64,000 bases of DNA from IMG/VR virus record IMGVR_UViG_2974697560_000001. One strand, given 5' to 3'. Of the stretch, positions 3,401-64,000 are shown piece after piece. Below the pieces are notes generated by a model, which saw nothing but the letters and a program-made list of their open reading frames with translations, had not been told where the DNA came from and searched no databases. The translations under genes were made by a program, and so were the position numbers. The first letter of the stretch is position 1, and each line of letters opens with the position of its first letter. Origin of the DNA: a virus (lineage: Duplodnaviria > Heunggongvirae > Uroviricota > Caudoviricetes).

Positions 3401-3729
3401 TATCTGACAACAGGGTTGCGAGGTTTGCGACCATGGACGAGCTGATTCACAGGATTCCTAACGGCTTCGTGGACTATCTGTATGCGAGTGAATACGGTGA
3501 CATTCCGGAAGGCATGTACAAGGTGCTTGCTTTCCAGCGGTACGTTACGAAGGCGAAGAAGACAATGGCGTATACGACAGTATGCGATTCTGACAAGAAT
3601 CTGTATCCTGTGATGGCCTTTCCTACCATGTTCCACAAGGCATATGGTAAGTGCAAGGATGGTGCGGTAATCGACGCTATTCTCAAGCAGACTCAGGAAG
3701 GTAGCTGGTTCTACGACAATATCCTGTGA
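445..3729 (+). CDS. dnaE: DNA polymerase III alpha subunit (DnaE-type, PHP N-terminus)
   Basis: 1094 aa; HLHDHYSSMDGT PHP motif, GPGRGSGAGSLVNYVLGITDIDPI, FFRFINPER, PDIDTDF; RBS aaggaagg upstream. Confidence 0.9.
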   Translation: MTQTVELHLHDHYSSMDGTNTAAEYMVRAKELGMTHLAQTNHGTLGGHREFQQAAKDAGIVPILGVEAYISPTDRFDKRSKASRSDGTNAYNHLIILAQNETGLQTLNRINRVGWTEGFYSKPRIDMEVLENDNEGLIVLSGCLNGLICKAIERGELDEAMAIADRFKSILGDRFFIEVQGHNPVDMNAALFHIADAKGIKPVVTSDCHYARKEDLWIQEAMLILSTNPKKNKDAEFSKSQKMEMLERFNYLYPDRKMTFEKIEIYLHDAEEHRQAFKAQGFDREDIITNTHVVADMIGDYPFHQGLDLLPRPKDGNPDDLLEEMSRKGLEDKGLSGDKKYVERLEEELEIIKSKDFSTYFLIVEDMISWAKSQGIMVGPGRGSGAGSLVNYVLGITDIDPIAENLLFFRFINPERNDFPDIDTDFEDARRGEVKEYLRKKYKNVASIATFTFFGDKAVVKDAARVFCVPVGEVNRALKFVDKWEQFLSSPTTEEFRKKYPEVITLAERLRGRIRQTGMHAAGVVIANQPLANFAPIETAKDPNDPNGPRIPLVAMDMDQAADLGLVKLDALGLKALSIIKDTIKMIEDRHNKKIVLNDIPLTDSRVYGMLSEGYTKGVFQCEATAYTKLIIKMGGVQNFDELAASNALVRPGAMNTIGAEYIARKNGKSPVKYHHFEMKPFTSETYGEILYQEQVMQTMTELAGMKMATADKVRKIIGKKKDAREFDQYREEFLEGASKKVHPAVAEKLWHDFEAHAGYSFNKSHAVAYSRLSYWTAWLKKHYPLEFMCATLRNEGDKDALTEYLIETKRMGIKMLLPHVNVSGVNFEIEGDAIRFGLTNIKFIREPGALQLIEYRPFTSYSDLYAKVNEKGNGLSARTLTGLNAIGASAFEDHPRTGEERENYYEYLRIPAFELKFIPPKVRAQMTDLEDYKDKGAFCVLAMVRGIKRGEGWARLDLIDETGTAGVFTNPETPIESGQMYAILVSDNRVARFATMDELIHRIPNGFVDYLYASEYGDIPEGMYKVLAFQRYVTKAKKTMAYTTVCDSDKNLYPVMAFPTMFHKAYGKCKDGAVIDAILKQTQEGSWFYDNIL

Positions 3730-3737
3730 GGAGGATA

Positions 3738-3917
3738 ATGGACGAGGCAATCAGGCCAGAAGACATTCTGCGCCTGTTGCTTATCGCTAACGGCCCTGTC
3801 ACTATCTCTGCTGAGGAGATGGACAGGGCTCTTGGCGATGCAACACACTATCAAGTAGCGGTAAGCTACGAACCATTCAAAGAAGAATTCACAATACACC
3901 TGGAGAACGATGATTAG
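3738..3917 (+). CDS. hypothetical small protein
   Basis: ORF 3726..3917; first ATG at 3738 after gaggagg RBS. Confidence 0.4.
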   Translation: MDEAIRPEDILRLLLIANGPVTISAEEMDRALGDATHYQVAVSYEPFKEEFTIHLENDD

Positions 3918-4284
3918 CGGATTTGAAAACCTGGGCAACGACCTGAGCATTAACGACTATCAGCTAACTGCCAACGAGACTGCGATTTACCCTGAGAATG
4001 GTGAGGCCAGTACAGCAGCTATCAATTACTGCATTCTTGGCCTGGTTGGTGAGGCTGGCGAAATCGCAAACAGCTTCAAGAAGACCATTCGAGACGACAA
4101 TGGCATTGTCACAGGAGAAAAGGCGAAGGCCCTCGCAGCAGAGCTTGGTGACGTTCTCTGGTATGCCGCTAATCTGGCGAGTGAGCTTGGCTATCCGCTT
4201 GAGCTAATTGCGAAGCAGAATCTACAGAAGCTCAAGTCACGTCAGGCACGAGGAGTGATTCAGGGCAGTGGCGACAACCGCTGA
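3910..4284 (+). CDS. mazG: MazG-like nucleoside triphosphate pyrophosphohydrolase
   Basis: 124 aa; LGLVGEAGEIANSFKK and ELGDVLWY MazG-type motifs. Confidence 0.7.
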   Translation: MISGFENLGNDLSINDYQLTANETAIYPENGEASTAAINYCILGLVGEAGEIANSFKKTIRDDNGIVTGEKAKALAAELGDVLWYAANLASELGYPLELIAKQNLQKLKSRQARGVIQGSGDNR

Positions 4285-4303
4285 CGCCTGATATACTGAG
4301 CCT

Positions 4304-4504
4304 ATGGCAACAGAAGCATATTTCCTCCGGGGAGTCGAAGACGAACATCTATTGGTGTTTCGTGGAAACTCTTCGGAGGAAATTTTGTTTATCATTAAGC
4401 GGTTGGCCGCCTGCCGCGACAAAGAAATAAAGGCAATGGCAAGAAAACTTGAAGAGGAATGGAACCAGAGAGAATATGGAAATAGAAGAGGAGATTCTAG
4501 CTAA
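4304..4504 (+). CDS. hypothetical protein
   Basis: ORF track, 66 aa. Confidence 0.35.
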   Translation: MATEAYFLRGVEDEHLLVFRGNSSEEILFIIKRLAACRDKEIKAMARKLEEEWNQREYGNRRGDSS

Positions 4505-5480
4505 GCTAAGCCCAAAGGTATTGGCAAGAGCTAAGATGGCCTCAGAGGTGCAATTGATGAGGCAGCCCACTCCAAGCACAGGGCTGAATTCTGCATTGCG
4601 TGGAGGCATCGGCTATGGACGCCAGACCCTAATCTGGGGTAGCAAGTCAGCAGGAAAATCAACATTCTGTCTAGGGATGCTGGGAATTGCACAGGCGGCC
4701 GGTAAGAAGACGGCCTTTATTGACTCTGAGCAGTCCTTTGACCCCTCTTGGGCAGAGCGTCTAGGAGTAGATACAAGAAAGCTCATCTACACTGACGTAA
4801 AGACAATCGAAGATATGGTAAGCGCAGGAGTCGAGTTCATGAAGGCTGGCATTGATATTGTCACTGTGGACTCCATCTCAGCACTTCTTTCATCAGCCTA
4901 CTTTGAGAAAGATAAGAAGGGTGATGAACTAAAGGAACTATCTGGCACAAAGCAGATTGGTTCAGAGGCAAGAGAGTTGGCTAATGGCGTAAAGATGCTT
5001 AACTACGCCAACAAGAAGACTGCTCTGGTTCTCATTTCCCAGGTACGTAACAAGATTACTACCTATGGAGCTATGCATCAGGCGACCGGTGGTCACGCAG
5101 TGGACTTCTTTAGTTCTACAGTCGTAAAGCTATGGAGTTCTGCTCGTGAGGCAGACCAGATTATGGGTGAGGTCCACAATGGTGACCTTCTGCTAAAGGA
5201 GCCAATTGGTCGTGAAGTAAACTGGACCATTGACAAGAACAAGCTTGGTCCTCCAAACAAGACTGGCAAGTACAATCTCTTCTACGATGGCGACTTCGTA
5301 GGAATCGACAATATTGGTGAAGCAGCCGTTTTGGGTGTTGCGCTTGGCATTGTCGAGAAGAAGGGCGCTTGGCATTACTACGGAGACCTCAAGGTTCAGG
5401 GTGGAGACAATTTCGCCATTGAGCTACGAGCTAATCCTGAATTGGCTGAAAAGCTGGTGAAGGAGGTAGAGGGCGCGTGA
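4476..5480 (+). CDS. RecA-family recombinase/ATPase (phage Sak4/UvsX-like)
   Basis: GSKSAGKST Walker A, AFIDSEQSFDPSWAERLGVD, VDSISALL RecA-like core. Listed start 4449 is TTG; first ATG is 4476. Start uncertain. Confidence 0.65.
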   Translation: MEIEEEILAKLSPKVLARAKMASEVQLMRQPTPSTGLNSALRGGIGYGRQTLIWGSKSAGKSTFCLGMLGIAQAAGKKTAFIDSEQSFDPSWAERLGVDTRKLIYTDVKTIEDMVSAGVEFMKAGIDIVTVDSISALLSSAYFEKDKKGDELKELSGTKQIGSEARELANGVKMLNYANKKTALVLISQVRNKITTYGAMHQATGGHAVDFFSSTVVKLWSSAREADQIMGEVHNGDLLLKEPIGREVNWTIDKNKLGPPNKTGKYNLFYDGDFVGIDNIGEAAVLGVALGIVEKKGAWHYYGDLKVQGGDNFAIELRANPELAEKLVKEVEGA

Positions 5481-5677
5481 TTAATCCATTCGCTGAGCAG
5501 CCGAAGAAGCCTGTCGATGAACTTCCTATGGGAATCGTCATCGACGGCTCTTTCGTCTGTATGACTTGTGGCCACGTTTGTGACGAAGCAGAGTATTTTC
5601 CAGTGGACAAGATTCTTGTATGGATTTGTGTCGAGGAGCACAAGTCTGCCATTGAGAATTTCAATCTAGGAGTATAA
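5477..5677 (+). CDS. hypothetical Cys-containing small protein
   Basis: ORF track, GTG start, CMTCGHVC motif. Confidence 0.4.
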   Translation: MINPFAEQPKKPVDELPMGIVIDGSFVCMTCGHVCDEAEYFPVDKILVWICVEEHKSAIENFNLGV

Positions 5678-5997
5678 TGACTGAGCTAAACGAAATCAAG
5701 AGAGATGGTGCCAAGGCACAGAAGAATTCTGGGCGTGGTCAATTCCAAAAGGGTGACGCCACGCTGGGGCCCTTCTGCTACGACATCAAAGAGTATGCCA
5801 AGTCTTTCAGTGTTTCCCAGGCTGTGTGGGGCAAGATTTGCACAGACGCCTTTCGGTCTGGTAACATGATTCCTGCGCTCAAGCTCGTCCTAGGCGCAGC
5901 AGACAAGAAGACTCGTGTCTGGGTAATTGGGGACGATATGTTCAAGGAAATGCTAGAAGCATGGGAGGAGAAGTATGGCGAAGCTAACGAGGGTTGA
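5677..5997 (+). CDS. hypothetical protein
   Basis: ORF track 106 aa. Confidence 0.45.
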   Translation: MTELNEIKRDGAKAQKNSGRGQFQKGDATLGPFCYDIKEYAKSFSVSQAVWGKICTDAFRSGNMIPALKLVLGAADKKTRVWVIGDDMFKEMLEAWEEKYGEANEG

Positions 5998-6184
5998 GTA
6001 TATTCGTCGTGACAATGGCGGATGGCTGGCGTACAAGAAGTATGACGACGGCAGCGAATATGGAGGCCCGGTAAGTAAGCAGGAGGTCGAAAACATGATT
6101 CTTGAAATGTTTGATGACCTAGGTGGCGTAATGATGCCAACCGACCTTGTGAAGGATGATGATGAGCGACCTGACGCCTCTTGA
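5975..6184 (+). CDS. hypothetical protein
   Basis: ORF track 69 aa; overlaps its neighbours at both ends. Confidence 0.35.
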   Translation: MAKLTRVEYIRRDNGGWLAYKKYDDGSEYGGPVSKQEVENMILEMFDDLGGVMMPTDLVKDDDERPDAS

Positions 6185-6497
6185 GCACATTTCAAAGATT
6201 GGTGAATTTCAGGAGCTTCATGAGTTCATGGAAGACCCGGAACTGGATGAGGCAATGGCTGTCATGGTACAGCTCATGATGAACCCAAACCTCAAGCCGG
6301 AAACCAATCAGCGACTCATTGTCCAGCTACAGGCGTATGCGGCCAAGTTCAGCATGCTTGCCTCTATCTATAGCACAATCAAAAAGGCACCTGCTGGTAG
6401 TCCAAACAATTTCAAAAAGAATATCTACTACACGACGGCTGAGTCAATCGACAAGCTAGTTCAGGCATTGAAGTACACTTTCAAGTTGCCCTACTGA
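6156..6497 (+). CDS. hypothetical protein
   Basis: ORF track 113 aa. Confidence 0.45.
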   Translation: MMMSDLTPLEHISKIGEFQELHEFMEDPELDEAMAVMVQLMMNPNLKPETNQRLIVQLQAYAAKFSMLASIYSTIKKAPAGSPNNFKKNIYYTTAESIDKLVQALKYTFKLPY

Positions 6498-6541
6498 TGT
6501 GTTACAATAGTAATCACTAAGAGAAACGGAAACTAACAACA

Positions 6542-7315
6542 ATGTCTAACGGACTACTTAAGATTGCTCGTCTGGGAAAGAAGGCGGACTTCGATATCAA
6601 GAAGCTGGTATCAGTTCTCGAAGACGCTTATGTAAATTCCCGGCCGAAGGAAAGATATTCCAAGAAGGTCTCATTTAGTCCGTCCTCTCTTGGCTATGGT
6701 GCCGGTACCTGTCCTAGGTACTGGTATCTGGCTTTTGAGGGCGGAACTTTTGTCGATACCTTTGATGGACTGAGTGTCGCCAACATGGCAAACGGAACAG
6801 CCGCACATACTCGCATCGAAAAACTATTCGGTGATGCTGGTGTGCTTGATGAAGCAGAGCGAGAGATTACCTATGCAGACCCTCCAATTCGAGGGTTCGT
6901 GGACGTAATCGTAGATTTCGAAGGACGAAAGATTGTTGGTGAGTTTAAGACGACTCGTCAGGAATCATATATCCATCGTGAAACAAATGGAACAGCAATT
7001 GACTATCATAAGGTTCAGGTTCTCGTGTACATGCGAGTGCTTGGTCTAGACGATGGCTTCGTTCTCTACGAAAACAAGAACACGCAGGAACTATTCCTTG
7101 TCCCCATTACAATGGATGAGGCGAACAGTGAATATACCGACTATCTGTTCGATTGGATGCGTGACACACGAAAGACATGGGAAGACAAGACTCTGCCTAC
7201 CCGACCATTTACCCAAAAGAGTAAGGCGTGCAAGTCCTGCGCGCTATTCAATGTGTGTTGGAACGAATCTCCAGAAGGCGACATTACTAAGGCACCACTG
7301 GAGGTGAAGAAGTAA
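6542..7315 (+). CDS. Cas4/RecB-like PD-(D/E)XK exonuclease with C-terminal Cys cluster
   Basis: SPSSLGYGAGTCPRYWYLAFEG N-terminus, DVIVDFEGRKIVGEFKT core, CKSCALFNVC Fe-S-type cysteines. Confidence 0.8.
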   Translation: MSNGLLKIARLGKKADFDIKKLVSVLEDAYVNSRPKERYSKKVSFSPSSLGYGAGTCPRYWYLAFEGGTFVDTFDGLSVANMANGTAAHTRIEKLFGDAGVLDEAEREITYADPPIRGFVDVIVDFEGRKIVGEFKTTRQESYIHRETNGTAIDYHKVQVLVYMRVLGLDDGFVLYENKNTQELFLVPITMDEANSEYTDYLFDWMRDTRKTWEDKTLPTRPFTQKSKACKSCALFNVCWNESPEGDITKAPLEVKK

Positions 7316-7597
7316 TTGATTTGCGCCTACGGAGAATGCGGTAACATGTTTGAGCCCAAGACTCATAATCAGAAGTTTTGCAGCTCAGCATGTTGCCGTA
7401 AGGCGACCAACGCAAGAATCATGGAGAAGTATTACGCTCGGCGTGCACGTCAAAAGGGAATCCTAAGAACGTGCTCTGAGTGCCCCACTGTGCTCTCCAG
7501 ATATAACAGCTCAGACAAATGCGAGGGCTGTAAAGCGGAGCAGCGCCGAAAGGAACGAGTGGAACTATTGGAGTTGATTGGTAGTGCCTCTGTCTGA
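7316..7597 (+). CDS. hypothetical zinc-ribbon protein
   Basis: 93 aa with several CxxC pairs. Confidence 0.45.
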   Translation: MICAYGECGNMFEPKTHNQKFCSSACCRKATNARIMEKYYARRARQKGILRTCSECPTVLSRYNSSDKCEGCKAEQRRKERVELLELIGSASV

Positions 7598-8153
7598 TAT
7601 ACACAAGACAAAGGCTCGAAGGGTCATGGGAATTGACTGCTCTACCAAATCCATAGCATTCACTATCTTTGACGGAGAAGACTTCTTGAAGTGTGGAGAG
7701 GTCTTCTTCAATGGAGCGACAGTATTCGAAAGAGTGCATGATGCGAACGTAAAGACCCTCGCACTCTTCGAACACTTCTCTCCTGATTTTGTTGCAATTG
7801 AAGCAGCCATTATGGTTCGAAGTACATCAGTCGCTATTAAGATGGCTTATGTGTTTGGTGCCGTGATTGCTGCTCTCTTGAAAAAGGGAGCAACTGTAAT
7901 TGAAGTCCCACCGATTTCATGGCAATCATTCATTGGCAATAAGAATCTGACGAAGGCAGAGAAGGATGCTATAAAGGCAGAATTTCCTGGTAAGTCTGCA
8001 AGTTGGTATCAGAATAAGGGCAGACTGATGAGGAAGCAGCGCACCATTGACTTTGCTAAACGAGAGTTTGGCGTCGAGCTAGAAAGCGATAACGTAGCTG
8101 ATTCACTAGGCATTGCCTGGTGGGCAGTGAAGAATAAGACACGAAGGAGTTAG
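7578..8153 (+). CDS. RuvC-like Holliday junction resolvase
   Basis: MGIDCSTKSIAFTIF catalytic N-terminus; true start may be the ATG at 7626. Confidence 0.65.
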   Translation: MVVPLSDIHKTKARRVMGIDCSTKSIAFTIFDGEDFLKCGEVFFNGATVFERVHDANVKTLALFEHFSPDFVAIEAAIMVRSTSVAIKMAYVFGAVIAALLKKGATVIEVPPISWQSFIGNKNLTKAEKDAIKAEFPGKSASWYQNKGRLMRKQRTIDFAKREFGVELESDNVADSLGIAWWAVKNKTRRS

Positions 8154-8154
8154 C

Positions 8155-8613
8155 ATGATTGTTGCGGGAACAGGTCATAGAGATTTGAGGGACCGTGACT
8201 GGATTGCTGCCCAAACTGAGAAGGCCCTCATTGATATGGGGGCCTCTTTGGTTTATGTAGGCATGGCATCTGGTTTCGACCTCCTATTGGCAAAAACGGC
8301 ATGGGGGCTCAAGATTCCCTTCATTGCTGCAAAGCCATGGAGAGGCCACAAGCCACGTAGAGCAGACGAGTACGACTATCACAGGGCTCTACAACTGGCT
8401 GATGAGGTCATCAACGTATTACCAAATGACGACTACCCTGGAGCATGGGCTTACCAAAAGCGCAATGAGTACATGGTAGACCACGCAGAAGGCGTCCTTG
8501 GAATGCTTGAGGCTGGTAAGACTGGGGGCACGTATAATTGCATTAAGTACGCCTCTGGCAAGATGCCAATCAAGATTATTGACCCTCTGATGAAGGAGGT
8601 GTGGGATGTCTAA
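8155..8613 (+). CDS. SLOG/DUF2493-like Rossmann-fold protein
   Basis: MIVAGTGHRDL N-terminus typical of YspA/DprA-like SLOG domains. Confidence 0.45.
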   Translation: MIVAGTGHRDLRDRDWIAAQTEKALIDMGASLVYVGMASGFDLLLAKTAWGLKIPFIAAKPWRGHKPRRADEYDYHRALQLADEVINVLPNDDYPGAWAYQKRNEYMVDHAEGVLGMLEAGKTGGTYNCIKYASGKMPIKIIDPLMKEVWDV

Positions 8614-8770
8614 GAAGAAAAAGAAAGAGTATTACAAGAGTGAGAAGTGGCTGAGAGCGCGTTACCGACAAAAGACTGCTCTCCAGATTGCCGAAGAGTG
8701 TGGCGTGTCAGAGATGACAATCACTCGTTATCTTGAGACGTTTAACATCACACGTAGACGTAGCCGTTGA
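8606..8770 (+). CDS. small HTH DNA-binding protein
   Basis: 54 aa not in ORF track (<60 aa); ALQIAEECGVSEMTITRYL helix-turn-helix; start overlaps the upstream stop. Confidence 0.4.
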   Translation: MSKKKKKEYYKSEKWLRARYRQKTALQIAEECGVSEMTITRYLETFNITRRRSR

Positions 8771-9408
8771 CCTGTGCTATGCTGACCTCTATGATGAAGA
8801 TTGGCATGATGGGCGCACATGGGACAGGGAAGACTTCCATGGCAGAAGCCATGGTTGAAGGACCATTCAAATTGTTTTCCCTGGTCCCATCAACGGCCCG
8901 ACAGATAAAAGCATATGGCTATCCCATTAACAGAGAAGCCACAGAGCTAAGTCAGATTCTCGTTCCCCTTCTACGAATGATTGATGAGGCAGAGGCTACA
9001 GTCAATCCACACAACAAAATGTACAAGCAAGGGCTCATCTCAGACAGAACGCTGGTTGACTCTCTTGCTTACACGATGTATCAGTGTGCTAACGTATGGG
9101 AGAGTGGAGAATTCATTGAGCATGTCACATATCGTCTGACTCAGATGTATATGAAGACGTACTCTCTTCTCCTTTACTTCCCAATTTACTGGGGGAATGT
9201 GGACGATGGAGTCCGAGACCCTGACGAGAAGTACCGCAGAGAAATCGACAATAACGTAAAGACAGTCCTGGATATGTTGGATGTTCCCTATTTCACGGTT
9301 CCTGATGTGTCTCCTCAAATGCGTGTGAACTGGCTTGTTGACAAGCTTGACATTCAGCGTGAGGAAGATGCCCGGAAGTGGATGGAAATCTTTCAGGGCA
9401 TGATATAA
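8767..9408 (+). CDS. P-loop NTPase/kinase (AAA_28/NadR-kinase-like)
   Basis: MMGAHGTGKTS Walker A at N-terminus, 213 aa. Confidence 0.55.
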   Translation: MTCAMLTSMMKIGMMGAHGTGKTSMAEAMVEGPFKLFSLVPSTARQIKAYGYPINREATELSQILVPLLRMIDEAEATVNPHNKMYKQGLISDRTLVDSLAYTMYQCANVWESGEFIEHVTYRLTQMYMKTYSLLLYFPIYWGNVDDGVRDPDEKYRREIDNNVKTVLDMLDVPYFTVPDVSPQMRVNWLVDKLDIQREEDARKWMEIFQGMI

Positions 9409-9432
9409 TTATCTTGAAAGTGAGGAGATACT

Positions 9433-9753
9433 ATGGGAACACCGACTAGAAGGCGCTCAAGGGAGAGGAATCCTGATGCCTGGTGGCAGGGAGCGTACAG
9501 CGGAATCCCACACATCATCGCTTCATATGAATTCGAAATTGATGGAGACACGGTTCTGCCAAAGGCTCTCATCAAGTTCAAAAATACGCGAGGCTCATTC
9601 AAGTTCCGATGTGTGGCAACCAATACTCAGACTGGCAAAACCTGGATTGACTGCATCAATGCAGATACAGGTGAATGGAAGTCTTTCTATGTGGAAAAGC
9701 TCAAGGGACTCGTAAAGCCAAGGCGTCCACGTAGAAGGAGAAAGGTTGCCTAA
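9433..9753 (+). CDS. hypothetical protein with basic C-terminal tail
   Basis: ORF track; ends KPRRPRRRRKVA. Confidence 0.45.
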   Translation: MGTPTRRRSRERNPDAWWQGAYSGIPHIIASYEFEIDGDTVLPKALIKFKNTRGSFKFRCVATNTQTGKTWIDCINADTGEWKSFYVEKLKGLVKPRRPRRRRKVA

Positions 9754-10273
9754 AGAACTAGACACGCTTGACCGAATTGAGCAGATGAATACGGTCGTAG
9801 CGGCTCATCTTAAGGGCGACAATGCCACTGCAATTGCTCGTAGTACGGGCATGAAGCGTGCTCAAGTCATTGAGTATATTGACGAGTGGAAGCTCATCGC
9901 TCAGAATAATAAGGCAATCCAGGCGCGAGCCACGGAAGCCTTGACTGGCATGGATGAGCATTACAACATGATTATCAGAGAACTCTGGGAAGTCCTAGAG
10001 GAAGCTGATATGAACAATGACCTCAAGACAAAGACTACTGTCCTGAAAAACCTGGCAGATGTTGAGGGCAAGCGAGTAGACCTTTTGCAGAAGGCTGGTC
10101 TCATTGACAGTCAGCATGCAGGAGATGAAGTAATTGAGATGGAGCGAAAGCACGAAATTCTCATTAGCATTCTCCGAGAAGTGACATCTGATTGTCCGCA
10201 TTGCAAGGTCGAAGTTGCTCGAAGGCTGAGCAGGGTCACTGACAAGACAGAGACCATTGTCGTCCCGAATTGA
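9746..10273 (+). CDS. HTH-containing protein; terminase small subunit is possible
   Basis: ATAIARSTGMKRAQVIEYIDEW HTH; lies directly upstream of the terminase large subunit. Confidence 0.4.
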   Translation: MPKELDTLDRIEQMNTVVAAHLKGDNATAIARSTGMKRAQVIEYIDEWKLIAQNNKAIQARATEALTGMDEHYNMIIRELWEVLEEADMNNDLKTKTTVLKNLADVEGKRVDLLQKAGLIDSQHAGDEVIEMERKHEILISILREVTSDCPHCKVEVARRLSRVTDKTETIVVPN

Positions 10274-10274
10274 T

Positions 10275-10316
10275 TAAATCCCTTCATGATATACTTTATA
10301 TCAATGAAGGGATTTA
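10275..10316 (+). repeat. near-perfect 19-bp inverted repeat (AAATCCCTTCATGATATAC-TTTA-TATCAATGAAGGGATTT, one interior mismatch) before the terminase start
   Basis: read directly; hairpin or symmetric protein-binding site. Confidence 0.7.
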
Positions 10317-10319
10317 GTT

Positions 10320-12140
10320 TTGTCTACTGATTTTGCTGAGTTCTTCAATGCGTTGTCAGACGACGACTTTGAAGAAATTCCAGTTGATATCGAAGTCTTC
10401 GTGCAAAGCGAAGACTACCTAGGCATGCCTCATTTGTCCGAATATCAGTACCAGCTCATTCGTGCTAGCAGTCAGATTTACAAGCAAAGCACGCTGTACA
10501 ACCTCTACGAGGCAGAAAAGGCAGAACGACGCTGGAAAGAAACGTGCAACGAGGTAATCGCCTGTTTGGGCAAGGGTAGTGGTAAGGACTTTACGTCAAC
10601 CATTGCCTGTGCCTACATTGTTTATTTGCTGCTGTGTCTACGTAATCCAGCGAAGTATTTTGGAAAGCCTGCTGGCGACTCCATTGACATCCTGAACATT
10701 GCTATTAACGCAGCGCAGGCTAACAACGTATTCTTCAAGGGATTCAAGAGCCGCATTGAGGGCTCCCCCTGGTTTGAAGGAAAGTACACGACCAAGGCTG
10801 GTCACATCGCTTTCGAGAAAAACATCAACGTCTACTCAGGGCACTCTGAGCGTGAAGCCTGGGAGGGCTACAACCTCATCTATTGCGTCCTTGATGAGAT
10901 TTCCGGTTTTGCTCTCGACTCTACCTCTGGTAATGAGCAGGCAAAGACGGCTGATGCTGTCTACAAGATGTATCGAGCATCTGTTGACTCCCGATTCCCG
11001 GCAGAAGGAAAGGTAGTTCTTCTATCATTCCCTCGCTTCAAGAACGACTTTATCTCTCAGAGATATGAGGCGGTAGTTGCAGAAAAGGAAGTAGTCGAGC
11101 GTAGCCATGTATTCAAGCTTGACCCTGAACTACCAGACGAGATTGAGGAAAACAAGTTCAGCATTAAGTGGGAGGAAGACCATATCATTTCCTACCACGT
11201 TCCTCGCGTCTATGCCTTGAAGCGTCCTACCTGGGAAGTCAATCCAACTCGTCAGATTGAAGACTTTACAACTGCATTCTTCACTGACCCAATTGATGCA
11301 CTGTCTCGATTTGCTTGTATGCCACCTGACGCTATTGACGCATTCTTTAAGGACAAGGAGAAGGTGGAAGCCTCTTTCGTTCGACCCAATGGAGTTGATG
11401 AGGACGGGTCATACAGGGCAGACTTTACACCGAAGGAGGGTGTACGCTACTATGTACACGTAGACCTTGCGCAGAAGCATGACCACTGTGCTGTAGCTCT
11501 TGCTCACGTTGAGAAGTTCGTACAGAAGAAGATTGGTGGTCAGCTTAACGAAGTGCTTCCTTATGTTGTGGTTGATGCTGTCCGATGGTGGACACCAAAG
11601 CCCGGTAAGGATGTTGACTTTGCTGACGTAAGAGACTACATTACAGGATTGAAGCGCAGAGGTTTTGACCTCCGCCTAGTGACCTTTGACCGCTGGAACT
11701 CTAATGACCAGATGAAGTATCTGCGAGGAGTCGGTATTAATTCCGAGGTTCTTTCAGTGGCAAAGAAGCACTATGAAGACTTGAGCTGGGTCATCTACGA
11801 CCAAAGACTTATGGGTCCAGATGTATCATTGCTTAAGAGAGAATTGCTGGCACTGCGTATCATGCCAAATGACAAGATTGACCACCCTAGAACGGGGTCA
11901 AAGGACTTGGCTGACGCAACGTGTGGAGCAGTTCACAATGCAATTACATACACGCCACGAGACGAGTTTGCTACCATTGAGGTACAAACGTACGAGTCAA
12001 TCAGGCGGGCAGAAATTGAGGCCAAGCGTGAGGAGCTTGACATGGCTCGTGAACGTGATAATGTAATTGAAGTGCCTCGTGAGCAAAGGAAGATGCCAGA
12101 TGAACTGGCTGATTATCTCACGAAGCTAGAAATTATCTGA
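10320..12140 (+). CDS. terminase large subunit
   Basis: 606 aa; LGKGSGKDF Walker A-like, YCVLDEISGF Walker B, C-terminal VHVDLAQKHDH nuclease-like; TTG start. Confidence 0.7.
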   Translation: MSTDFAEFFNALSDDDFEEIPVDIEVFVQSEDYLGMPHLSEYQYQLIRASSQIYKQSTLYNLYEAEKAERRWKETCNEVIACLGKGSGKDFTSTIACAYIVYLLLCLRNPAKYFGKPAGDSIDILNIAINAAQANNVFFKGFKSRIEGSPWFEGKYTTKAGHIAFEKNINVYSGHSEREAWEGYNLIYCVLDEISGFALDSTSGNEQAKTADAVYKMYRASVDSRFPAEGKVVLLSFPRFKNDFISQRYEAVVAEKEVVERSHVFKLDPELPDEIEENKFSIKWEEDHIISYHVPRVYALKRPTWEVNPTRQIEDFTTAFFTDPIDALSRFACMPPDAIDAFFKDKEKVEASFVRPNGVDEDGSYRADFTPKEGVRYYVHVDLAQKHDHCAVALAHVEKFVQKKIGGQLNEVLPYVVVDAVRWWTPKPGKDVDFADVRDYITGLKRRGFDLRLVTFDRWNSNDQMKYLRGVGINSEVLSVAKKHYEDLSWVIYDQRLMGPDVSLLKRELLALRIMPNDKIDHPRTGSKDLADATCGAVHNAITYTPRDEFATIEVQTYESIRRAEIEAKREELDMARERDNVIEVPREQRKMPDELADYLTKLEII

Positions 12141-13309: not shown

Positions 13310-13416
13310 GCTGTTAAAGTAGTAAATGTGGGTCGAACGAAAGTTGGTTATCTTTCAATAATGGTGAATACGCTCCGATAGGGGCTCTCCGACTTTCAAA
13401 CACTTATCCACACAAT

Positions 13417-17991: not shown

Positions 17992-18168
17992 CTTGTGGGT
18001 CGAAGATGATTGTTTATCTTCAAATCAGCGTGTTGGGGGTTCGAATCCTCCCTGGGGACTTCATTGTCCTCGGTAACTCAATGGCAGAGTAGCTGACATT
18101 GCCCGAATGGGCTAGACGATTGTCACACCTTATCCACATTACAAACAACTACTAACTAAGGAATAACC

Positions 18169-23617: not shown

Positions 23618-25270
23618 ATGTCAAACGCACTTAACACTGCTGCCAAGGGTCTGAACAAGACTCCTCAGTCTCAGAAGGCTAAGGCAGGTCAGGTAAAGAA
23701 CAACGCTGGTGGATTCGTCTTCCAGGTTTCTGACCAGGCTCGCCTAGAGCGATTCCTGATTCTGGGTGTTGATGGTGGCACATATTACGTCAAGGAGAGC
23801 ACTCACGCTCGTTCCAACGTACAATTCCTCAACGAGATGATTGAGCGAGACGAAGCCTCTGTACTGAACACCATTGTGGACGTGTCCGTCAATGGTCGTG
23901 CATACAAGCAGTCTCCTGCCCTGTTCGCTCTAGCCTCTGTCATTGCCAATGGTAAGGACAAGCAGGCGGTCAAGGCGGTATTCAATCGTGTCGTTCGTAC
24001 AGGCACTCACCTGTATGAGCTTCTGAACTACCTTACTTCAATGAACGTTGGATGGGGTCGTTCAAAGCGAGAGATTGTTGCTTCTTGGTTCGACCGAGAT
24101 GCTGACAAGCTGGCTTACCAGGCGGTCAAGTACCGTTCTCGTAAGTTTGGTGAGCAGACTTGGACGCTCCGAGACGTAATGCGTCTTTCCCACCCACGAG
24201 ATGTGAACACATCTGTTGCAGATTTCGTTCTCGGCAAGCCTCACGATGCTACCGATGACCTTCGGGTTATCGAGGGCTTCAAGAAGATGCAGAGGGCTCA
24301 GTCTGTCGAGGACGTTCACAGCGTTCTCCGTGAGTACGAGATACTTTCATGGGAGACAATCCCAACTCAGTTCCTCAAGGACGTGAGTGTATGGAAGCGA
24401 ATCTTCGCTAACGGACAGCTCCGTGGCCAGGCTCTTGTTCGAAACATCACTCGCCTTGCGCGAATTGGTGCTTTCCAGGACATGCGCTTTGCTGCTGCGT
24501 ATGCAGGACAGCTCACAAATCAGGAGATGATTGTACAGACTCGTCTGCACCCAATCAACTTCCTGAATGCGTCTGTCGTGTACAACGAAGGCCAGATGAA
24601 GACCGTAAGGGACCGCTGGGGCTTCGAGCGCGAGGAGCGTGTAAAGGACTGGACAACTGAGAGTGTTATTGCGGATGCCCTCAATGAGGGATTCCACAAG
24701 GCATTCAAGGCTGTCGAGCCTGCCGGTAAGCGAACGATGCTGGCTCTGGATGTATCAGGCTCCATGAGTGCAAAGGCTAACGGTCTCGACCTTAGCTGTG
24801 CTCAGGTTTCTGCTGCAATGTCTATGGCCATTGCTCGTACCGAGCCTGCTCACATCATCCGTGGATTCACGTCCAATGGATATGGCTGGTCTGGTCGCAA
24901 CAGTGACCTCACCGACCTTGGTATCAGCGCTAAGACAGACCTTGCTACGGCAATGCGTAATGTCCAGCGTCATAACTGGGGCGGTACGGACTGTAGCCTT
25001 CCAATGCGTTGGGCTCTGGACCGTGGAATTGAAGTAGACACGTTCATCATTATCACCGATAATGACACGTGGGCTGGTGAAATCCACCCATTCCAGGCGC
25101 TCAAGGAGTACCGTAAGAAGACTGGCATTCCAGCTCGTCTGGCAGTTCTGGGAGTTCAGGCAACTGAATTCACCATCGCTGACCCAAGCGATGCAGGAAT
25201 GATGGACTTCGTAGGGTTTGACAGCAATGCACCTCGCGTGCTGGCTGACTTCTCCGCAGGTCGCATCTGA
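23618..25270 (+). CDS. rsr: Ro60-related protein (TROVE domain) with C-terminal vWA/MIDAS domain
   Basis: GGFVFQVSDQARLERFLILGVDGGTYYVKE TROVE N-terminus; LALDVSGSM MIDAS; 550 aa. Confidence 0.85.
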   Translation: MSNALNTAAKGLNKTPQSQKAKAGQVKNNAGGFVFQVSDQARLERFLILGVDGGTYYVKESTHARSNVQFLNEMIERDEASVLNTIVDVSVNGRAYKQSPALFALASVIANGKDKQAVKAVFNRVVRTGTHLYELLNYLTSMNVGWGRSKREIVASWFDRDADKLAYQAVKYRSRKFGEQTWTLRDVMRLSHPRDVNTSVADFVLGKPHDATDDLRVIEGFKKMQRAQSVEDVHSVLREYEILSWETIPTQFLKDVSVWKRIFANGQLRGQALVRNITRLARIGAFQDMRFAAAYAGQLTNQEMIVQTRLHPINFLNASVVYNEGQMKTVRDRWGFEREERVKDWTTESVIADALNEGFHKAFKAVEPAGKRTMLALDVSGSMSAKANGLDLSCAQVSAAMSMAIARTEPAHIIRGFTSNGYGWSGRNSDLTDLGISAKTDLATAMRNVQRHNWGGTDCSLPMRWALDRGIEVDTFIIITDNDTWAGEIHPFQALKEYRKKTGIPARLAVLGVQATEFTIADPSDAGMMDFVGFDSNAPRVLADFSAGRI

Positions 25271-38742: not shown

Positions 38743-38944
38743 CTCATCACCTGGGGATGCCTTGGTTTCGACTGGGGTGGATGACTTTAGTTTGCAGCCT
38801 GACATTGAGGAGATGTCATTAAAAAGCCTCAACCCTATAAATGCCAACTCTAAGTTCGCATTCGCTCTTGCTGCCTGACGGTAGCTGAGCGGGGCTAGTG
38901 GGCGGCCTGGCAACAGAATAGCCCACCACAAACTTTCTTGTAAC

Positions 38945-39018
38945 ACCCCTTGACACATGGCTGTGTATAGACTACTGTTTGAAGCATCAGGACGCGGGTT
39001 CGACTCCCGCCATCTCCA
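38945..39018 (+). tRNA. tRNA-like: T-arm GCGGG-TTCGACT-CCCGC plus a 3' tail, 5' acceptor unresolved
   Basis: orphan T-arm upstream of the next CDS. Confidence 0.2.
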
Positions 39019-39039
39019 CTTCCTATTAAGGAGTAAAAA

Positions 39040-43041: not shown

Positions 43042-44142
43042 ATGAAGTTCACCAAGATTTTCTCTCAGGACTTGCTTGACCAGATGGTCAACGAGGGCTT
43101 TGTTCGGGTGCAGACTCATCCGGTTCTCCCTCTGCGAATCCTGAACTACTCCGAGAAGGCGCAGTTCGCTGGCAAGTGGAACGCATGTACGCTTGCTTGT
43201 CGTGGCCTTATCATTGACGAGTTTGACAACGTCATTGCTCGTCCGTTTGAGAAGTTCTTCAACATGGGGGACTCTCATGCTGCTGACATTGACTGGAACG
43301 CTCCGGTTGAGGTTACGGACAAGAAGGACGGCTCTATGGGCATCCTTTACTCCGTAATGCCTTACAGTGACGCGATTCCGCCTTACGGATTCCAGTACGG
43401 AATTGCTACGCGAGGCTCTTTCCAGTCTGACCAGGCAATCCACGCCACGAAGCTGTGGCTGGAGCGCTACAAGAACACTGCCGTCCCTCACGACTGGACG
43501 TTCATTTTCGAGATTGTCTACCCTGACAACCGAATCGTCCTGGACTACGGGGACATGGATGACCTTATCCTTCTGGGTGCGGTAAACAAGGAGCACGGCT
43601 ACGTGTATGGTCCTCGTGAGGCTTCGGTTTTGCTGGATTGGCAGGGGCCGGTGACCGAGGTGTTTGATTACAAGAACATTCACGAGGCTGTTGGTGCGGA
43701 CTACCGTCCCAACGCTGAGGGTCTTGTAATCCGCTCTGGCTCTAAGATGGTCAAGCTAAAGCAGGCTGACTATGTTGAGCTGCACCGACTGATTTCAATG
43801 CTTTCAGAGCGCTCTGTATGGAGTCAGCTCACTGAGGGCAAGACGATTCTGGAGATTTGTGAGGCTCTGCCTGACGAGTTCCACCAGTTCGTCAAGGATG
43901 TCGGTGGCAAGCTGCTCAGCGACTACGAGGAGATTGAAATTAAGGTGCGTGGAATCTTCCACAACCTTCTTTCCTCAATGGATGAGGGCTTCACACGACG
44001 TGACTTCGCAATGAAGGCCAACGGTGTGGACCTCTACCGTAGCCACATGTTCAACCTGCTTGACGGCAAGAGCATCGATGAGCTAATCTGGAAGCAGCTC
44101 AAGCCCGCTGCAAAGACGGAGGATGGCTACCCTGTTGGGTAG
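43042..44142 (+). CDS. RNA ligase, T4 Rnl1 (RnlA)-like
   Basis: CRGLIIDEFDNVIARPFEKFFNMGD aligns to the Rnl1 N-terminal signature; TDKKDGSMG is a KxDG adenylation motif; 366 aa. Confidence 0.8.
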   Translation: MKFTKIFSQDLLDQMVNEGFVRVQTHPVLPLRILNYSEKAQFAGKWNACTLACRGLIIDEFDNVIARPFEKFFNMGDSHAADIDWNAPVEVTDKKDGSMGILYSVMPYSDAIPPYGFQYGIATRGSFQSDQAIHATKLWLERYKNTAVPHDWTFIFEIVYPDNRIVLDYGDMDDLILLGAVNKEHGYVYGPREASVLLDWQGPVTEVFDYKNIHEAVGADYRPNAEGLVIRSGSKMVKLKQADYVELHRLISMLSERSVWSQLTEGKTILEICEALPDEFHQFVKDVGGKLLSDYEEIEIKVRGIFHNLLSSMDEGFTRRDFAMKANGVDLYRSHMFNLLDGKSIDELIWKQLKPAAKTEDGYPVG

Positions 44143-44305
44143 CCTCCCATAACAAGGAGAATAAATTGTCTGACGCCACTCGCACTGCCGATGAGGCTGT
44201 TTCAAATGCTAAGCTCATTGGCATGGCTGTTTGGTCTTGGCTGAGTTCCCATCCTGCGGTTCTCGCCATTCTGTTCTTCGTACTTGGCTTCATGATTGGC
44301 TAAGC

Positions 44306-44485
44306 ATGAGGAATGTATTTAGGGCGGCAGCCCAAAAGGCTGTACGCGAAGGTATATGTACCCCAGTCATAGGCTGTGGTCAGCCTATTCGAGATGAGGA
44401 TTTCAATGACGAAGAGTCTTTGCGAGAGTCCCGTATCTCAGGTCTCTGTCAGTCCTGTCAAGATAGGATTTACGGAGACCTCTGA
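44306..44485 (+). CDS. small Cys-containing hypothetical protein
   Basis: ATG-initiated C-terminal part of listed ORF 44231..44485. Confidence 0.35.
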   Translation: MRNVFRAAAQKAVREGICTPVIGCGQPIRDEDFNDEESLRESRISGLCQSCQDRIYGDL

Positions 44486-44589
44486 GGTCAGGATGGGCGA
44501 AGAGGCATTTCGATGCTCATCCTGTCAATATCAGTTTCCGTACCATTCGGATGACTGTCCGTACAACATGAACAACCAGAAGTAGCAAA

Positions 44590-44612
44590 AGGGCCCTTCG
44601 GGGCCCTTTTTG
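44590..44612 (+). terminator. rho-independent terminator AAGGGCCC-TTCG-GGGCCCTT-TTT
   Basis: read directly. Confidence 0.8.
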
Positions 44613-44620
44613 CGTAGGGG

Positions 44621-44649
44621 TTGACGCGGCCTGTCTGTTCGACTAGAGT
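44621..44649 (+). promoter_or_regulatory. promoter TTGACG-N17-TAGAGT(AGAG)
   Basis: recurring motif copy, directly upstream of the kinase/phosphatase gene. Confidence 0.6.
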
Positions 44650-44676
44650 AGAGCTAACAACAACGAAGGGAAAGAC

Positions 44677-45582
44677 ATGGCAACGCTTCTCATTCTCCGG
44701 GGTGTCCCTGGATGTGGTAAGAGCACTTTCGCCCATCAGTGGCTCATGGAGGGCGAGCGACGTGCCCGTGTAAACCGTGATGACATCCGTATGCAGTTCT
44801 TCGGCAAGGAGACTGGTGTGGATGAGAACATGGTTACACAAATTGAGCATATGCAGGTTGACAGTCTGCTTAAGGCTGGATACTCTGTGGTGGTCGATGA
44901 CACGAACATCCGCCACGCTTACATCAAGGCTTTCGTCAAGATTGCCAGTAAGCATGGTGTGCCTGTTGCGGTAAAGCAGTTCGATGTGGACCTCAAGGTT
45001 GCCATTGAGCGCAATGCTGGCCGGGCGGCACAGGGTGGTCGTGACGTTCCTACTCCTGTCATTGAGAAGATGCACAAGTCTCTCAAGTCAAGTGGACAGT
45101 TCACGCGCAAGCTGATTGAGGAAAGCTACTGTAGCTCTCCTGTTGGCAAGCCTTACGTTCGGCCGGTAGGCAAGCGGAAGATTTACCTCTTTGACATTGA
45201 TGGTACTCTTGCCAGCATGTCTGACAGGTCTCCGTTTGACTGGTCTCGCGTAGGAGAGGATGACCCTCGTAGGCAGGTCGTACTAACTGCTCAGGCACTC
45301 GCAGAGGCAGGTTACGACATTGTAGTTATGAGTGGTCGTGACTCTAGCTGCCGTGAAGAAACAATCGCTTGGCTGGAGTTCTACGATGTTCCTTTCTGTG
45401 ACCTCTTCATGAGGGCAGAGGGTGACATGCGTAAGGACAACATCGTCAAGCAGGAATTGTTTGACCAGCACATCCGTGACTTCTACGATGTTGTGGCCGT
45501 CTTTGACGACCGCCAGCAAGTAGTTGACATGTGGCGTGACATGGGCGTAGACTGCTTCCAGGTTGCGCCTGGAGATTTCTGA
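44677..45582 (+). CDS. polynucleotide 5'-kinase/3'-phosphatase (T4 Pnk-like)
   Basis: N-terminal GVPGCGKST P-loop kinase; C-terminal IYLFDIDGTL HAD DxDGT phosphatase. Confidence 0.8.
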   Translation: MATLLILRGVPGCGKSTFAHQWLMEGERRARVNRDDIRMQFFGKETGVDENMVTQIEHMQVDSLLKAGYSVVVDDTNIRHAYIKAFVKIASKHGVPVAVKQFDVDLKVAIERNAGRAAQGGRDVPTPVIEKMHKSLKSSGQFTRKLIEESYCSSPVGKPYVRPVGKRKIYLFDIDGTLASMSDRSPFDWSRVGEDDPRRQVVLTAQALAEAGYDIVVMSGRDSSCREETIAWLEFYDVPFCDLFMRAEGDMRKDNIVKQELFDQHIRDFYDVVAVFDDRQQVVDMWRDMGVDCFQVAPGDF

Positions 45583-62368: not shown

Positions 62369-62647
62369 GTGCTAGAGAAATGGGCATGGTGGATTCTGGC
62401 CCGGCAGATGAGAAGGTACCGTGATACCAGACAACACCACCAAGCAGACCACATAAGGGCAGCACTAGCCACAAGAGAACAGAAGATTTGTAGTCTCTGC
62501 TGTATCCTTGAGAATACAGACTGGCTAGCATGGGCAACACGCTTTGACCCGACTGCTAATGAGTGCAAGGACAACGAGCTATATGCAAGTATTGTTGAAG
62601 ATGAATCCCGGTTTGGAGATGTGGTTCGGAGAACAGGTCTGGATTGA
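62369..62647 (+). CDS. hypothetical protein
   Basis: ORF track 92 aa. Confidence 0.4.
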   Translation: MLEKWAWWILARQMRRYRDTRQHHQADHIRAALATREQKICSLCCILENTDWLAWATRFDPTANECKDNELYASIVEDESRFGDVVRRTGLD

Positions 62648-63055
62648 CGAAGACTGGGAAGATTGGGACGACGACGAGGACTGGCCAGATGATGGCTGGT
62701 CCTTTTCGTTTTTATAGGGGTGGCATCGGATGTCGGATTTCTTAGTCGCAATTCGAATCCATGATTTTTTTAGTCATAGATTTTTAGTCGCGTAGCGACT
62801 GCGCCTGCGGCTCAAAGAGGGCCCGGTAGTGAAGGGTCCCAGTACCCCTATATACATTACTCCTTATCCCCTATAAGAGAACACCCAACCACTATATACC
62901 CAAAGGCATATGAGGCATACAGAGCATGTCGATGAGCATGCAGTGAGGCATGACAACGTGTGCTTGAATCAATCAGTCCGTATGCATGATGAGTCTGTCT
63001 TGCATACCGTCCTTGAATACATGAAGTACACCCATCTTGTCAACCAATGTTGCAA

Positions 63056-63122
63056 GTTATCCACAGGTTTAGGCTAGGTTGTGGATAACTATTGTGGATA
63101 AAGAAATATAGGTTGTGCACAA
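63056..63122 (+). promoter_or_regulatory. cluster of DnaA-box-like 9-mers (TTATCCACA, then two inverted TTGTGGATAA) plus the palindrome TTGTGCACAA
   Basis: exact matches to the bacterial DnaA box consensus TTATCCACA, read directly inside a non-coding region of more than 1.3 kb. Confidence 0.5.
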
Positions 63123-63699
63123 TATAGTAGTGTGAAGGGTATGTGTAATAGTCCGGGATATCTCGCAGGCTTAACAAGCATTTGGAGGCACATTCTAAGC
63201 CCTAGCAAACATTCTGCCCACGAATCCAAGGCAAATAAGGCTGTCAAGCACCGAAATATATGCTCCAAAAGTGTCCCAAAATGAGCAAAAACATGCTAAT
63301 TTCAAGGGGAATGCTGCCATTTTGCCCGAAATCGTGCCAGAATCCAGCAATTTTAACAGTCATTCGTAAAGCAGCCCCAATCTAGCCCACATGCAGCCCC
63401 AAATCAGCCCATCTTCCTGGAAAATTAGGCAGTCATCGTAAATGGACCCACCATTCGAAGGCCAATGAGCCTGATAGACCTTAGATTCATAGATGAGGTG
63501 TCGATTCTCCCTATATACATGCCAGACTTGAGTCTGATGTGAGAAAAGCCCGGCAGTTTGAAGAGGCTTTCGTAAATGGACTAGATAGATACACACGCAT
63601 TATAGGGAAGGGTAGATAGTATATGTATATAGGGGACAAGGACACCTATCACTACCGGCCTTGAATCTCAGCATGTCTTGTCTCTCATGTATATAGCAG

Positions 63700-63727
63700 A
63701 AAAGCCACCCCGAAGGGTGGCTATTTT
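63700..63727 (+). terminator. rho-independent terminator AGCCACCC-CGAA-GGGTGGCT-ATTTTTGT
   Basis: read directly; there is no annotated ORF upstream, so it may end a non-coding transcript. Confidence 0.75.
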
Positions 63728-64000
63728 TGTACTCAAAAAAGTTTCTGAAAATGTGCTGACTCCGGGGATTTTGAGCCCTGACTTAAAGGGCCAAATCCTG
63801 GGAAAAATAAGGAGCCTTCGTAAAGGGGATTCAATTCGGACATCGGGGACAAATCGATGTGAATCTTGACAGACATGAAGTTAGTTAGGCTAGCTAAGAT
63901 GTCCGCCCCGGACATTGAAAGGTCCCTGGGGAGAGGCCGACCTTCCTCTAATTAAGCCCTCGCCAGATTGACTGATAGGGCCCCCAGGGACACACTTTGT

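Follow-up and report, generated by a model that had tools for sequence, protein, structure and literature searches.

A conserved DnaA-box module beside the left genome end at the terminal-repeat junction of cluster BE Streptomyces phages

Results

The region spans the junction of unique DNA and the terminal repeat

We analyzed the last 1,351 bp (positions 62,650–64,000) of a 64,000-nucleotide stretch of viral DNA (IMG/VR record IMGVR_UViG_2974697560_000001, Caudoviricetes; the whole stretch is hereafter the window), which a sequence-only reading had proposed to be a gene-free replication origin and/or a packaging or partition site. The region matches Streptomyces phage Samisti12 at 100% identity; this is a cluster BE1 siphovirus of the Stanwilliamsviridae, genus Samistivirus (MF347639.1, 133,710 bp), and window positions are obtained by subtracting 59894 from record positions. 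In this untranslated stretch, the unique DNA of a cluster BE Streptomyces phage gives way to the right copy of its 10.7-kb direct terminal repeat (DTR), and 82 other Streptomyces phage records contain homologous sequence at 72–96% identity, in two copies per record.

Gene 1 of the record (903–1079, minus strand) is the same as gene 252 (123947–124123), and Samisti12 therefore carries a DTR, reported to be 10,666 bp long with ends called from read pile-ups and two-fold coverage (PMC5764925). The beginning of the record (GTCCGGGATATC..., GTCCGGGATATCTCGCAGG) is identical to the window from 63151 onward, so that the left DTR boundary, and with it the physical left terminus of the virion DNA, falls between 63150 and 63151. 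The region accordingly consists of the last ~430 bp of unique DNA (62718–63150) and the first 850 bp of the right repeat copy (63151–64000). Genes 41–251 run rightward into it and the repeat genes run leftward toward it, making it a point of gene convergence. Its description as non-coding and cis-acting was right, and the suggestion of a packaging region was close to the mark, with the left genome end lying inside the region.

Paired DnaA boxes lie about 70 bp from the genome end

Inspection of the region confirmed that the sequence features previously listed, namely three exact TTATCCACA DnaA boxes, a palindrome, short repeats and a terminator, are real and far above chance. Only small corrections to their positions were needed: box 1 starts at 63057 rather than 63056, the third TCGTAAA copy at 63570, a CCCTATATACAT copy at 63509, and the terminator occupies 63703–63722. 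Box 1 (63057–63065, plus strand) is followed by two boxes on the minus strand, box 2 (63080–63088, TGTGGATAA when read on the plus strand) and box 3 (63093–63101), all three being exact matches; the TTGTGGATAA occurrences at 63079–63088 and 63092–63101 correspond to minus-strand TTATCCACA at 63080 and 63093. Box 2 is inverted relative to box 1, and the two together form an 11-bp perfect inverted repeat, AGTTATCCACA / TGTGGATAACT. The palindrome TTGTGCACAA (63114–63123), which occurs once in the genome, is equivalent to two overlapping TTGTNCACA boxes.

Exact TTATCCACA is found five times in the window and eight times in the 123-kb non-redundant genome, compared with ~1 expected, and three of these copies fall within 45 bp here. 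With up to one mismatch allowed, five boxes (three exact and two with one mismatch) lie within 67 bp, forming the only DnaA-like cluster in the genome; every other 300-bp window holds at most two. Two more exact boxes stand isolated on the plus strand of the window (13404–13412 and 18130–18138), one of them 5 nt upstream of a tRNA-Gly gene.

To evaluate conservation, we compared the junction in Samisti12 and 15 further phages (16 in total) from two genera, Samistivirus (BE1: Lululemon, EGole, Braelyn, NootNoot, Evy, Paradiddles, Anedea, LilMartin, Daubenski and Bmoc) and Karimacvirus (BE2: Karimac, StarPlatinum, Genie2, TomSawyer and Enygma). The box pair is conserved over both genera against a background identity of 70%. 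Box 1 is present in 16 of 16 phages as (T/C)TATCCACA, in which TATCCACA is invariant and the first T is changed to C in two phages, and box 2 is present as TGTGGATAACT in 15 of 16, Bmoc carrying TGTGGATAG and then a 19-bp insertion. The spacer between the two boxes is 12–15 nt long and variable in sequence, with start-to-start distances of 22–24 bp. Box 3 is lineage-specific: it is exact in Samisti12, Lululemon and EGole, and reads TTATACACA in the Braelyn group. Anedea, Daubenski and the BE2 phages have a degenerate version or none, and LilMartin has two extra upstream boxes in its place. The number of boxes per phage thus varies from 2 to 4 and the cluster persists. The conservation footprint matches the 9-mer definition of a DnaA box, with variation at positions 1 and 5 that the DnaA consensus tolerates. 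Together with the 2-bp flexibility in spacing and the variable box number, this pattern fits independently bound DnaA monomers.

Between the boxes and the genome end lies an AT-rich tract (63090–63150) that finishes in TGTAAT. Its GC content of 0.32 (60-bp window) places it in the lowest 0.24% of the Samisti12 genome. In the 15 related phages, the tract after box 2 measures 50–52 bp (71 bp in Bmoc) with a GC content of 0.28–0.37, and its sequence differs between the two genera with AT-richness retained. The palindrome TTGTGCACAA belongs to a conserved BE1 block, TTGTGCACAATATAGTAGTG, and reads TTGTGCGCAA in three BE1 phages; unrelated AT-rich sequence takes its place in BE2. The closing TGTAAT is invariant, being embedded in TGTGTAAT in 15 of 16 phages and in TATGTAAT in Daubenski, and the next base is A, G or T.

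The genome end lies 50 bp past the third box. Measured from box 2, the distance to the end is 71 bp in BE1, 69 bp in BE2 and 70 bp in Daubenski (69–71 bp in 15 of 16 phages). The end occupies the same alignment column in seven BE1 genomes, as determined by direct sequence match, and in three BE2 genomes, as calculated from the offset of a conserved marker; in 10 genomes it directly follows (G/A)TGTAAT plus A or G.

The right repeat boundary (between record positions 10666 and 10667) is likewise conserved, with ...TATGCGAAGCATGTAT on the repeat side and CRTACA...AAAAATTACTAACATTT beyond it, and the repeat ends there in TGTAT, resembling the TGTAAT of the left end. A search for DnaA boxes at this boundary and at the divergent gene switch (18.6–19.1 kb) returned none except an isolated box at record position 19389. 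Just inside the right boundary lies the sole plus-strand gene of the repeat, encoding the HNH endonuclease gp21 (record 10017–10478), and a gp21-type HNH gene occupies the same place in six of six other BE1 genomes checked. The gp21 endonuclease is a possible candidate for an end-processing nuclease. Most of the terminal repeat is GC-richer (51–60% in 1-kb windows, record 1001–11000) than the rest of the genome (~45–53%), and its first 1 kb has a GC content of 47%.

GC skew and gene content bear on the proposed replication origin

Cumulative GC skew had been put forward as a check on the proposed origin. Its minimum lies at record 18–19 kb, where genes diverge, and its maximum at 123–124 kb, which is the region analyzed here. 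A skew minimum located away from the region had been named beforehand as an outcome speaking against the proposal. The result counts against a conventional origin but is not proof, since phage skew also tracks the direction of transcription. Samisti12 encodes a bacterial-type replisome (DnaB-like helicase, DnaG-like primase, DnaE and DnaQ) with no annotated initiator, and a large terminase (gp96) with no annotated small subunit; a Pfam scan of the neighboring proteins for a small terminase or an initiator gave nothing informative. The origin proposal is therefore weakened: the DnaA boxes, the AT-rich tract and the replisome lacking an annotated initiator remain in its favor, while the skew minimum lies elsewhere and the box is not TTGTCCACA, the high-affinity DnaA box of Streptomyces (PMC4285127).

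The partition proposal found no support: a scan of the window for the parS-like 16-bp palindrome TGTTTCACGTGAAACA, tolerating up to three mismatches, came back empty. Overall, the sequence-only interpretation is partly supported. Inverted TTATCCACA pairs also occur in at least 120 unrelated IMG/VR stretches, which offer no usable context for this module; we estimate this frequency to be well above chance. A search of the available literature retrieved no paper tying DnaA boxes to a Streptomyces phage genome, the sole co-occurrence of the terms being a study of Streptomyces coelicolor SSB proteins.

Upstream flank: last genes and variable spacer

The last annotated small open reading frame (ORF) of the rightward array in GenBank record MF347639.1, gp251 (62583–62717, plus strand), overlaps gp250 (62369–62647), which had been taken as the final ORF. 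Terminator scoring identified a terminator-like hairpin (62676–62704) with a T-run (62676–62714 in all, plus strand) that closes the rightward array, and the block 62674–62698 is 84% invariant over seven diverged phages. The remaining unique DNA up to the boxes is a variable spacer (62718–63054) that cannot be aligned between subgroups, with a conservation of 0.00 across 62924–63048; BLAST homology in distant relatives begins only at ~63036–63058. The spacer holds the TTAGTCGC repeats, as TT[CT]TTAGTCGC at 62739 and 62781, and one CCCTATATACAT copy (62846–62857). In TomSawyer (826–1368) and Enygma (1443–1682, each in its own compared stretch), the DNA separating the last rightward gene from the box module contains an inserted HNH endonuclease gene.

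The expectation that the DNA after 62647 is gene-free held for conserved proteins only. Among nine local ORFs after gp251 (44–78 aa), none stays open in the more diverged relatives, where they gain in-frame stops or lose alignment, and protein genes in the gap were therefore rejected. Gp251 itself extends to 62717. The other refuting outcome named beforehand, small genes recovered by aligning relatives, occurred in part: the comparison revealed a conserved gene for an RNA rather than a protein on the minus strand (63922–63991), described below. The region thus appears to be free of protein genes without being gene-free.

The repeat leader carries motif families confined to this part of the genome

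The first 850 bp of the repeat (63151–64000), which we refer to as the leader, contain TCGTAAA and TATATACAT motifs, a bidirectional terminator and the small RNA gene. The one-directional (T)TCGTAAA(G/T)G repeats (63364–63826, plus strand) start at 63364, 63436, 63570 and 63818. Four copies of TCGTAAA[GT]G had been counted; three of them (63436, 63570 and 63818) are exact, and the fourth, at 63364, is the variant TCGTAAAGC. Each of 10 phages examined (10/10) has 3–6 plus-strand copies and no minus-strand copy of (T)TCGTAAA(G/T)G within the first ~700 nt of the repeat, compared with a background of 0.26 per 950 nt per strand. The copies lie at similar offsets from the genome end in both genera (~+214, +287, +420–450 and +660–710). 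Possible roles for these repeats include recognition by an end-binding or packaging protein and Chi-like, orientation-dependent control of a nuclease. A role as UACG-tetraloop hairpins in a minus-strand RNA was unsupported, as only the copy at 63818 forms one and three copies lie beyond the terminator.

Copies of the CC(C)TATATACAT motif occupy 63497–63699 in both orientations (63509–63520, plus strand; 63623–63634, minus strand; 63687–63696, minus strand, partial). Three are located in the leader and one in the spacer, with none elsewhere in the genome. The longer CCCTATATACAT, previously noted at 62846 and 63509, has a third exact copy, inverted, at 63623, and every genomic copy of CTATATACA is in this region. 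The most conserved leader block of the TATATACAT area is GGTGTCGATTCTCCCTATATACA (84% invariant), and BE2 phages carry TATATAAGACAT at places equivalent to the TATATACAT motifs. We rejected an RNA stem formed by the TATATACAT inverted repeat, as the arms outside the core do not co-vary, and treated it as a repeated DNA motif. Being essentially confined to this region of the genome, the TCGTAAA and TATATACAT families were also rejected as general phage promoters. The GCAGCCCCAA... repeats at 63371 and 63393 are lineage-specific, as are the TTAGTCGC repeats of the spacer.

The bidirectional intrinsic terminator (63703–63722) consists of GCCACCCCGAAGGGTGGC flanked by A-runs and T-runs and scores on both strands. 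Its stem is retained through compensatory changes in Braelyn and LilMartin.

The leader encodes a predicted structured RNA

Within the leader, the block 63918–63992 is more conserved than the neighboring gene 1 and is the sole piece present in all 83 records. It contains a Y-shaped structured domain on the minus strand (63922–63991) with four helices, 23 base pairs and one three-way junction. In this fold, 99.7% of alignment cells are paired and eight pairs show compensatory changes; its covariation score was reached by none of 500 shuffles, and controls with shifted register gave 37–61% pairing. The consensus folding energy is −36.2 kcal/mol for the minus strand and −26.5 kcal/mol for the plus strand, and U-G pairs become mismatches on the plus strand. 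On these grounds, we prefer the minus strand for the RNA.

All 18 of 18 sequences contain TTGACA, a 17-nt variable spacer and TGn plus TAnnnT at the window equivalent of 64040–64012 (record 123906–123934 and 862–890), which resembles a near-consensus host-type promoter. From this element, located just beyond the window end, to the next minus-strand terminator (63722–63703), the predicted non-coding RNA (63697–64000, minus strand) would run leftward for ~300 nt, with the Y-shaped fold as its 5' domain and no conserved ORF. Its start is expected near the window equivalent of 64005 and its end near 63700, the terminator lying ~200 nt past the Y-shaped domain. It is encoded once per repeat and hence in both repeat copies, giving two genes per virion genome. 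The RNA is probably made early by the host polymerase.

Rfam 15, including the Y RNA and tRNA-like families, gave no hit in the region at the gathering threshold. In a permissive scan (E up to 10), nothing overlapped 63922–63991, and six weak hits at 63626–63799 around the terminator were judged to be terminator-like noise; known RNA families were rejected accordingly. Searching 20 non-isolate IMG/VR contigs for the RNA yielded two real instances, both BE-like by sequence, the others being chance pattern matches. We propose the RNA as a previously undescribed candidate for a new phage non-coding RNA family restricted to BE-type phages. The window also encodes a Ro-like RNA-binding protein, tmRNA, RNA ligase and polynucleotide kinase (23618–25270, 38753–39019 and 43042–45582) and holds 42 tRNA genes. 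The Ro-like protein, gp126, is a possible partner of the predicted RNA, although Rfam detected no Y RNA in any part of the window.

The junction resembles other terminal-repeat junction regions

The junction belongs to the DnaA-box-bearing terminal-repeat junction regions, among which its architecture is unusually clean and tied to the genome end. Judged by overall geometry, its closest analogue would be Repeat Region 3 of phage T5 (Heusterspreute 1987; Wang 2005; Davison, bioRxiv 10.1101/866236), the likeness being one of layout. That 1.2-kb untranslated region overruns the inner boundary of the 10,139-bp terminal repeat by 270 bp and holds many repeats and conserved DnaA boxes ~8% from the end, with HNH insertions nearby in some relatives (bioRxiv 10.1101/866236). 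Both phages are large siphoviruses with a ~10-kb terminal repeat full of small early genes. In each, more than 1 kb of untranslated, repeat-rich DNA straddles a repeat boundary, the consensus TTATCCACA boxes are better conserved across relatives than the neighboring ORFs, and some relatives (here TomSawyer and Enygma) carry HNH endonuclease insertions. The details differ. T5 has ~8 boxes in pairs 3 bp apart, located inside the repeat (hence two copies per genome) at 680–800 bp from the boundary and within the IRD'/IRC' inverted repeats with a 52-bp spacer, a layout not seen here. In contrast, the BE phages have two (up to four) boxes with an inverted pair 22–24 bp apart, just outside the repeat, single-copy and ~70 bp from the end, and their host is an actinobacterium that prefers TTGTCCACA.

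The general layout is also that of oriC-type and P1 oriR-type origins, in which DnaA boxes in both orientations lie beside an unwindable AT-rich tract (PMC4285127). Unlike these origins, the junction has only two to three strong boxes of a type that is not the host optimum, and it sits at a gene convergence and GC-skew maximum, tied to a genome end.

The module can further be set beside the concatemer junction of phage T7, which is reported to comprise pacB, the phiOR promoter/secondary origin, an inverted-repeat hairpin intermediate and short repeat arrays (Dunn & Studier 1983; Chung, Nardone & Hinkle 1990). There, too, cis signals occupy the unique sequence bordering the terminal repeat on its left; an origin-type element, together with an inverted repeat, adjoins the repeat and has been connected with its duplication and with packaging; and short one-directional repeat arrays flank the repeat or lie within it. 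On the other hand, the T7 repeat is 160 bp, as opposed to 10.7 kb here, and its element is a promoter/origin for the phage RNA polymerase rather than a set of DnaA boxes, with no known sequence similarity between the two.

Discussion

Our best reading of the junction is that it serves as the site of genome-end formation in replicating concatemers. Specifically, the ~95-bp core (63055–63150) may act as an origin-like, end-defining element when concatemers are processed or the repeat is duplicated, a reading to which we assign a probability of roughly 0.5. We favor an end-defining role because the skew, the box type and the fixed distance to the end speak against a conventional origin. In the mechanism we envisage, the box pair would be bound by a sequence-specific protein, most likely host DnaA or else a phage protein of the same specificity, and the bound protein would mark or open the AT-rich tract at the fixed distance of ~70 bp. 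The cut or nick that makes the left end would then be placed there, after the TGTAAT motif, and strand-displacement copying of the repeat could start from this point, possibly with the phage DnaB-like helicase. The individual parts of this proposal differ in strength. Where the end lies, how well the boxes are conserved, their set spacing and the AT-richness of the tract are all observed. The boxes are very probably functional binding sites, and DnaA is the likelier, though by no means assured, ligand. That the module directs the cutting is something we infer from its position, and a possible connection to repeat duplication by strand-displacement copying is drawn by analogy with the T7 concatemer junction.

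Several observations weigh against an end-defining, DnaA-bound element. The module is not part of the genome copy starting at the cut, in contrast to lambda cosB, which lies on the packaged side. The right repeat boundary is conserved yet has no DnaA boxes, and a symmetric mechanism is thus not evident. In Bmoc, the 19-bp insertion extends the box-to-end distance to 90 bp, indicating that the spacing constraint is not absolute, and the deposited ends derive from one sequencing and annotation pipeline. Lastly, the phage boxes are invariably TTATCCACA, one difference from TTGTCCACA (position 3), with the A kept in all 16 phages, and the ligand may therefore not be DnaA.

Two other functions would account for part of the same evidence, and we regard each as unlikely. 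Were the site a conventional DnaA-dependent origin, DnaA would melt the AT-rich tract and load the phage DnaB-like helicase, and the nearness to the repeat boundary would be incidental. The oriC-like arrangement of boxes and adjoining AT-rich tract, its being the sole such cluster in the genome, the bacterial-type replisome with no annotated initiator, and the inverted box pairs in at least 120 IMG/VR stretches, estimated as well above chance, are all consistent with this model. It is opposed by the cumulative GC-skew maximum here (minimum at 18–19 kb), the convergence of genes on the site and the departure of the boxes from the host-preferred TTGTCCACA at position 3, and it offers no reason for the boxes to keep a constant distance of ~70 bp from the physical end in both genera despite divergence of the DNA in between. 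That distance, together with the position of the boxes, would suit end recognition at a pure packaging site, where the resemblance to DnaA boxes is coincidental and a phage protein such as a small terminase or end-recognition factor binds, comparable to lambda cosB or T7 pacB. The invariant A at position 3 in the face of a host preference for G, and the conservation of box 2 flanks beyond the 9-mer (CTGTGGATAACT), point in this direction; no small terminase is annotated, and an unassigned DNA-binding partner may exist. However, an exact, near-universal 9-mer present 2–4 times per phage is unlikely to arise by chance, the changes seen at position 1 and in box 3 (TTATACACA) conform to the degeneracy of the DnaA consensus, and a 2-bp flexibility in spacing suits independent monomers more than a rigid dimer.

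The analogy with T5 raises a further model, in which the right end enters the cell first, so that the 10.7-kb repeat (8% of the genome, with small early genes) is the first DNA transferred, and entry then pauses at the boxes through membrane-bound DnaA. The geometry of the T5 region is alike, the untranslated region here measures 1.3 kb with boxes 10.7 kb from the right end, and the repeat genes are transcribed inward from that end. We nevertheless consider an entry pause improbable. The role of Repeat Region 3 as an injection stop signal acting via membrane-bound DnaA is itself an unproven hypothesis in a preprint (bioRxiv 10.1101/866236), and the T5 stop mechanism was still called poorly understood in a 2026 paper (PMC13250531). 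Moreover, the boxes here are two, single-copy and outside the repeat, as opposed to eight, paired 3 bp apart and inside it, and a pause site would need no fixed 70-bp distance to the boundary. A non-functional intergenic gap with chance or relic motifs could explain the poorly conserved spacer (62718–63054) and the lineage-specific repeats there (TTAGTCGC, GCAGCCCCAA). For the region as a whole, the conservation data in effect refute this explanation: a stretch of 45 bp contains three exact 9-mers, as opposed to ~1 expected per 123 kb, the boxes are kept across two genera at 70% background identity, and the RNA shows covariation.

The long-DTR phages T5, SPO1 and the BE cluster pose the question of how ends are defined and ~10-kb repeats duplicated. 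In the BE phages, a compact, origin-like module conserved in two genera keeps a fixed distance from a precisely mapped end. Its two 9-mers, spacer and cut motif make a concrete target for mutation, and it offers a testable link to the host initiator DnaA. The module also parallels, independently and in phages of an actinobacterium, the DnaA boxes of the T5 terminal repeat, which have long been puzzling. A bolder version, which we consider unlikely, is that the module generates the long repeat itself: hijacked host DnaA would open the left boundary, and the phage DnaB-like helicase and polymerase would copy the 10.7-kb repeat by strand displacement from a nick at TGTAAT. The host initiator would then be coupled to the making of phage genome ends. 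This would be the first mechanistic handle on the duplication of ~10-kb repeats in T5/SPO1/BE-type phages, and it might account for the unexplained DnaA boxes in the T5 repeat.

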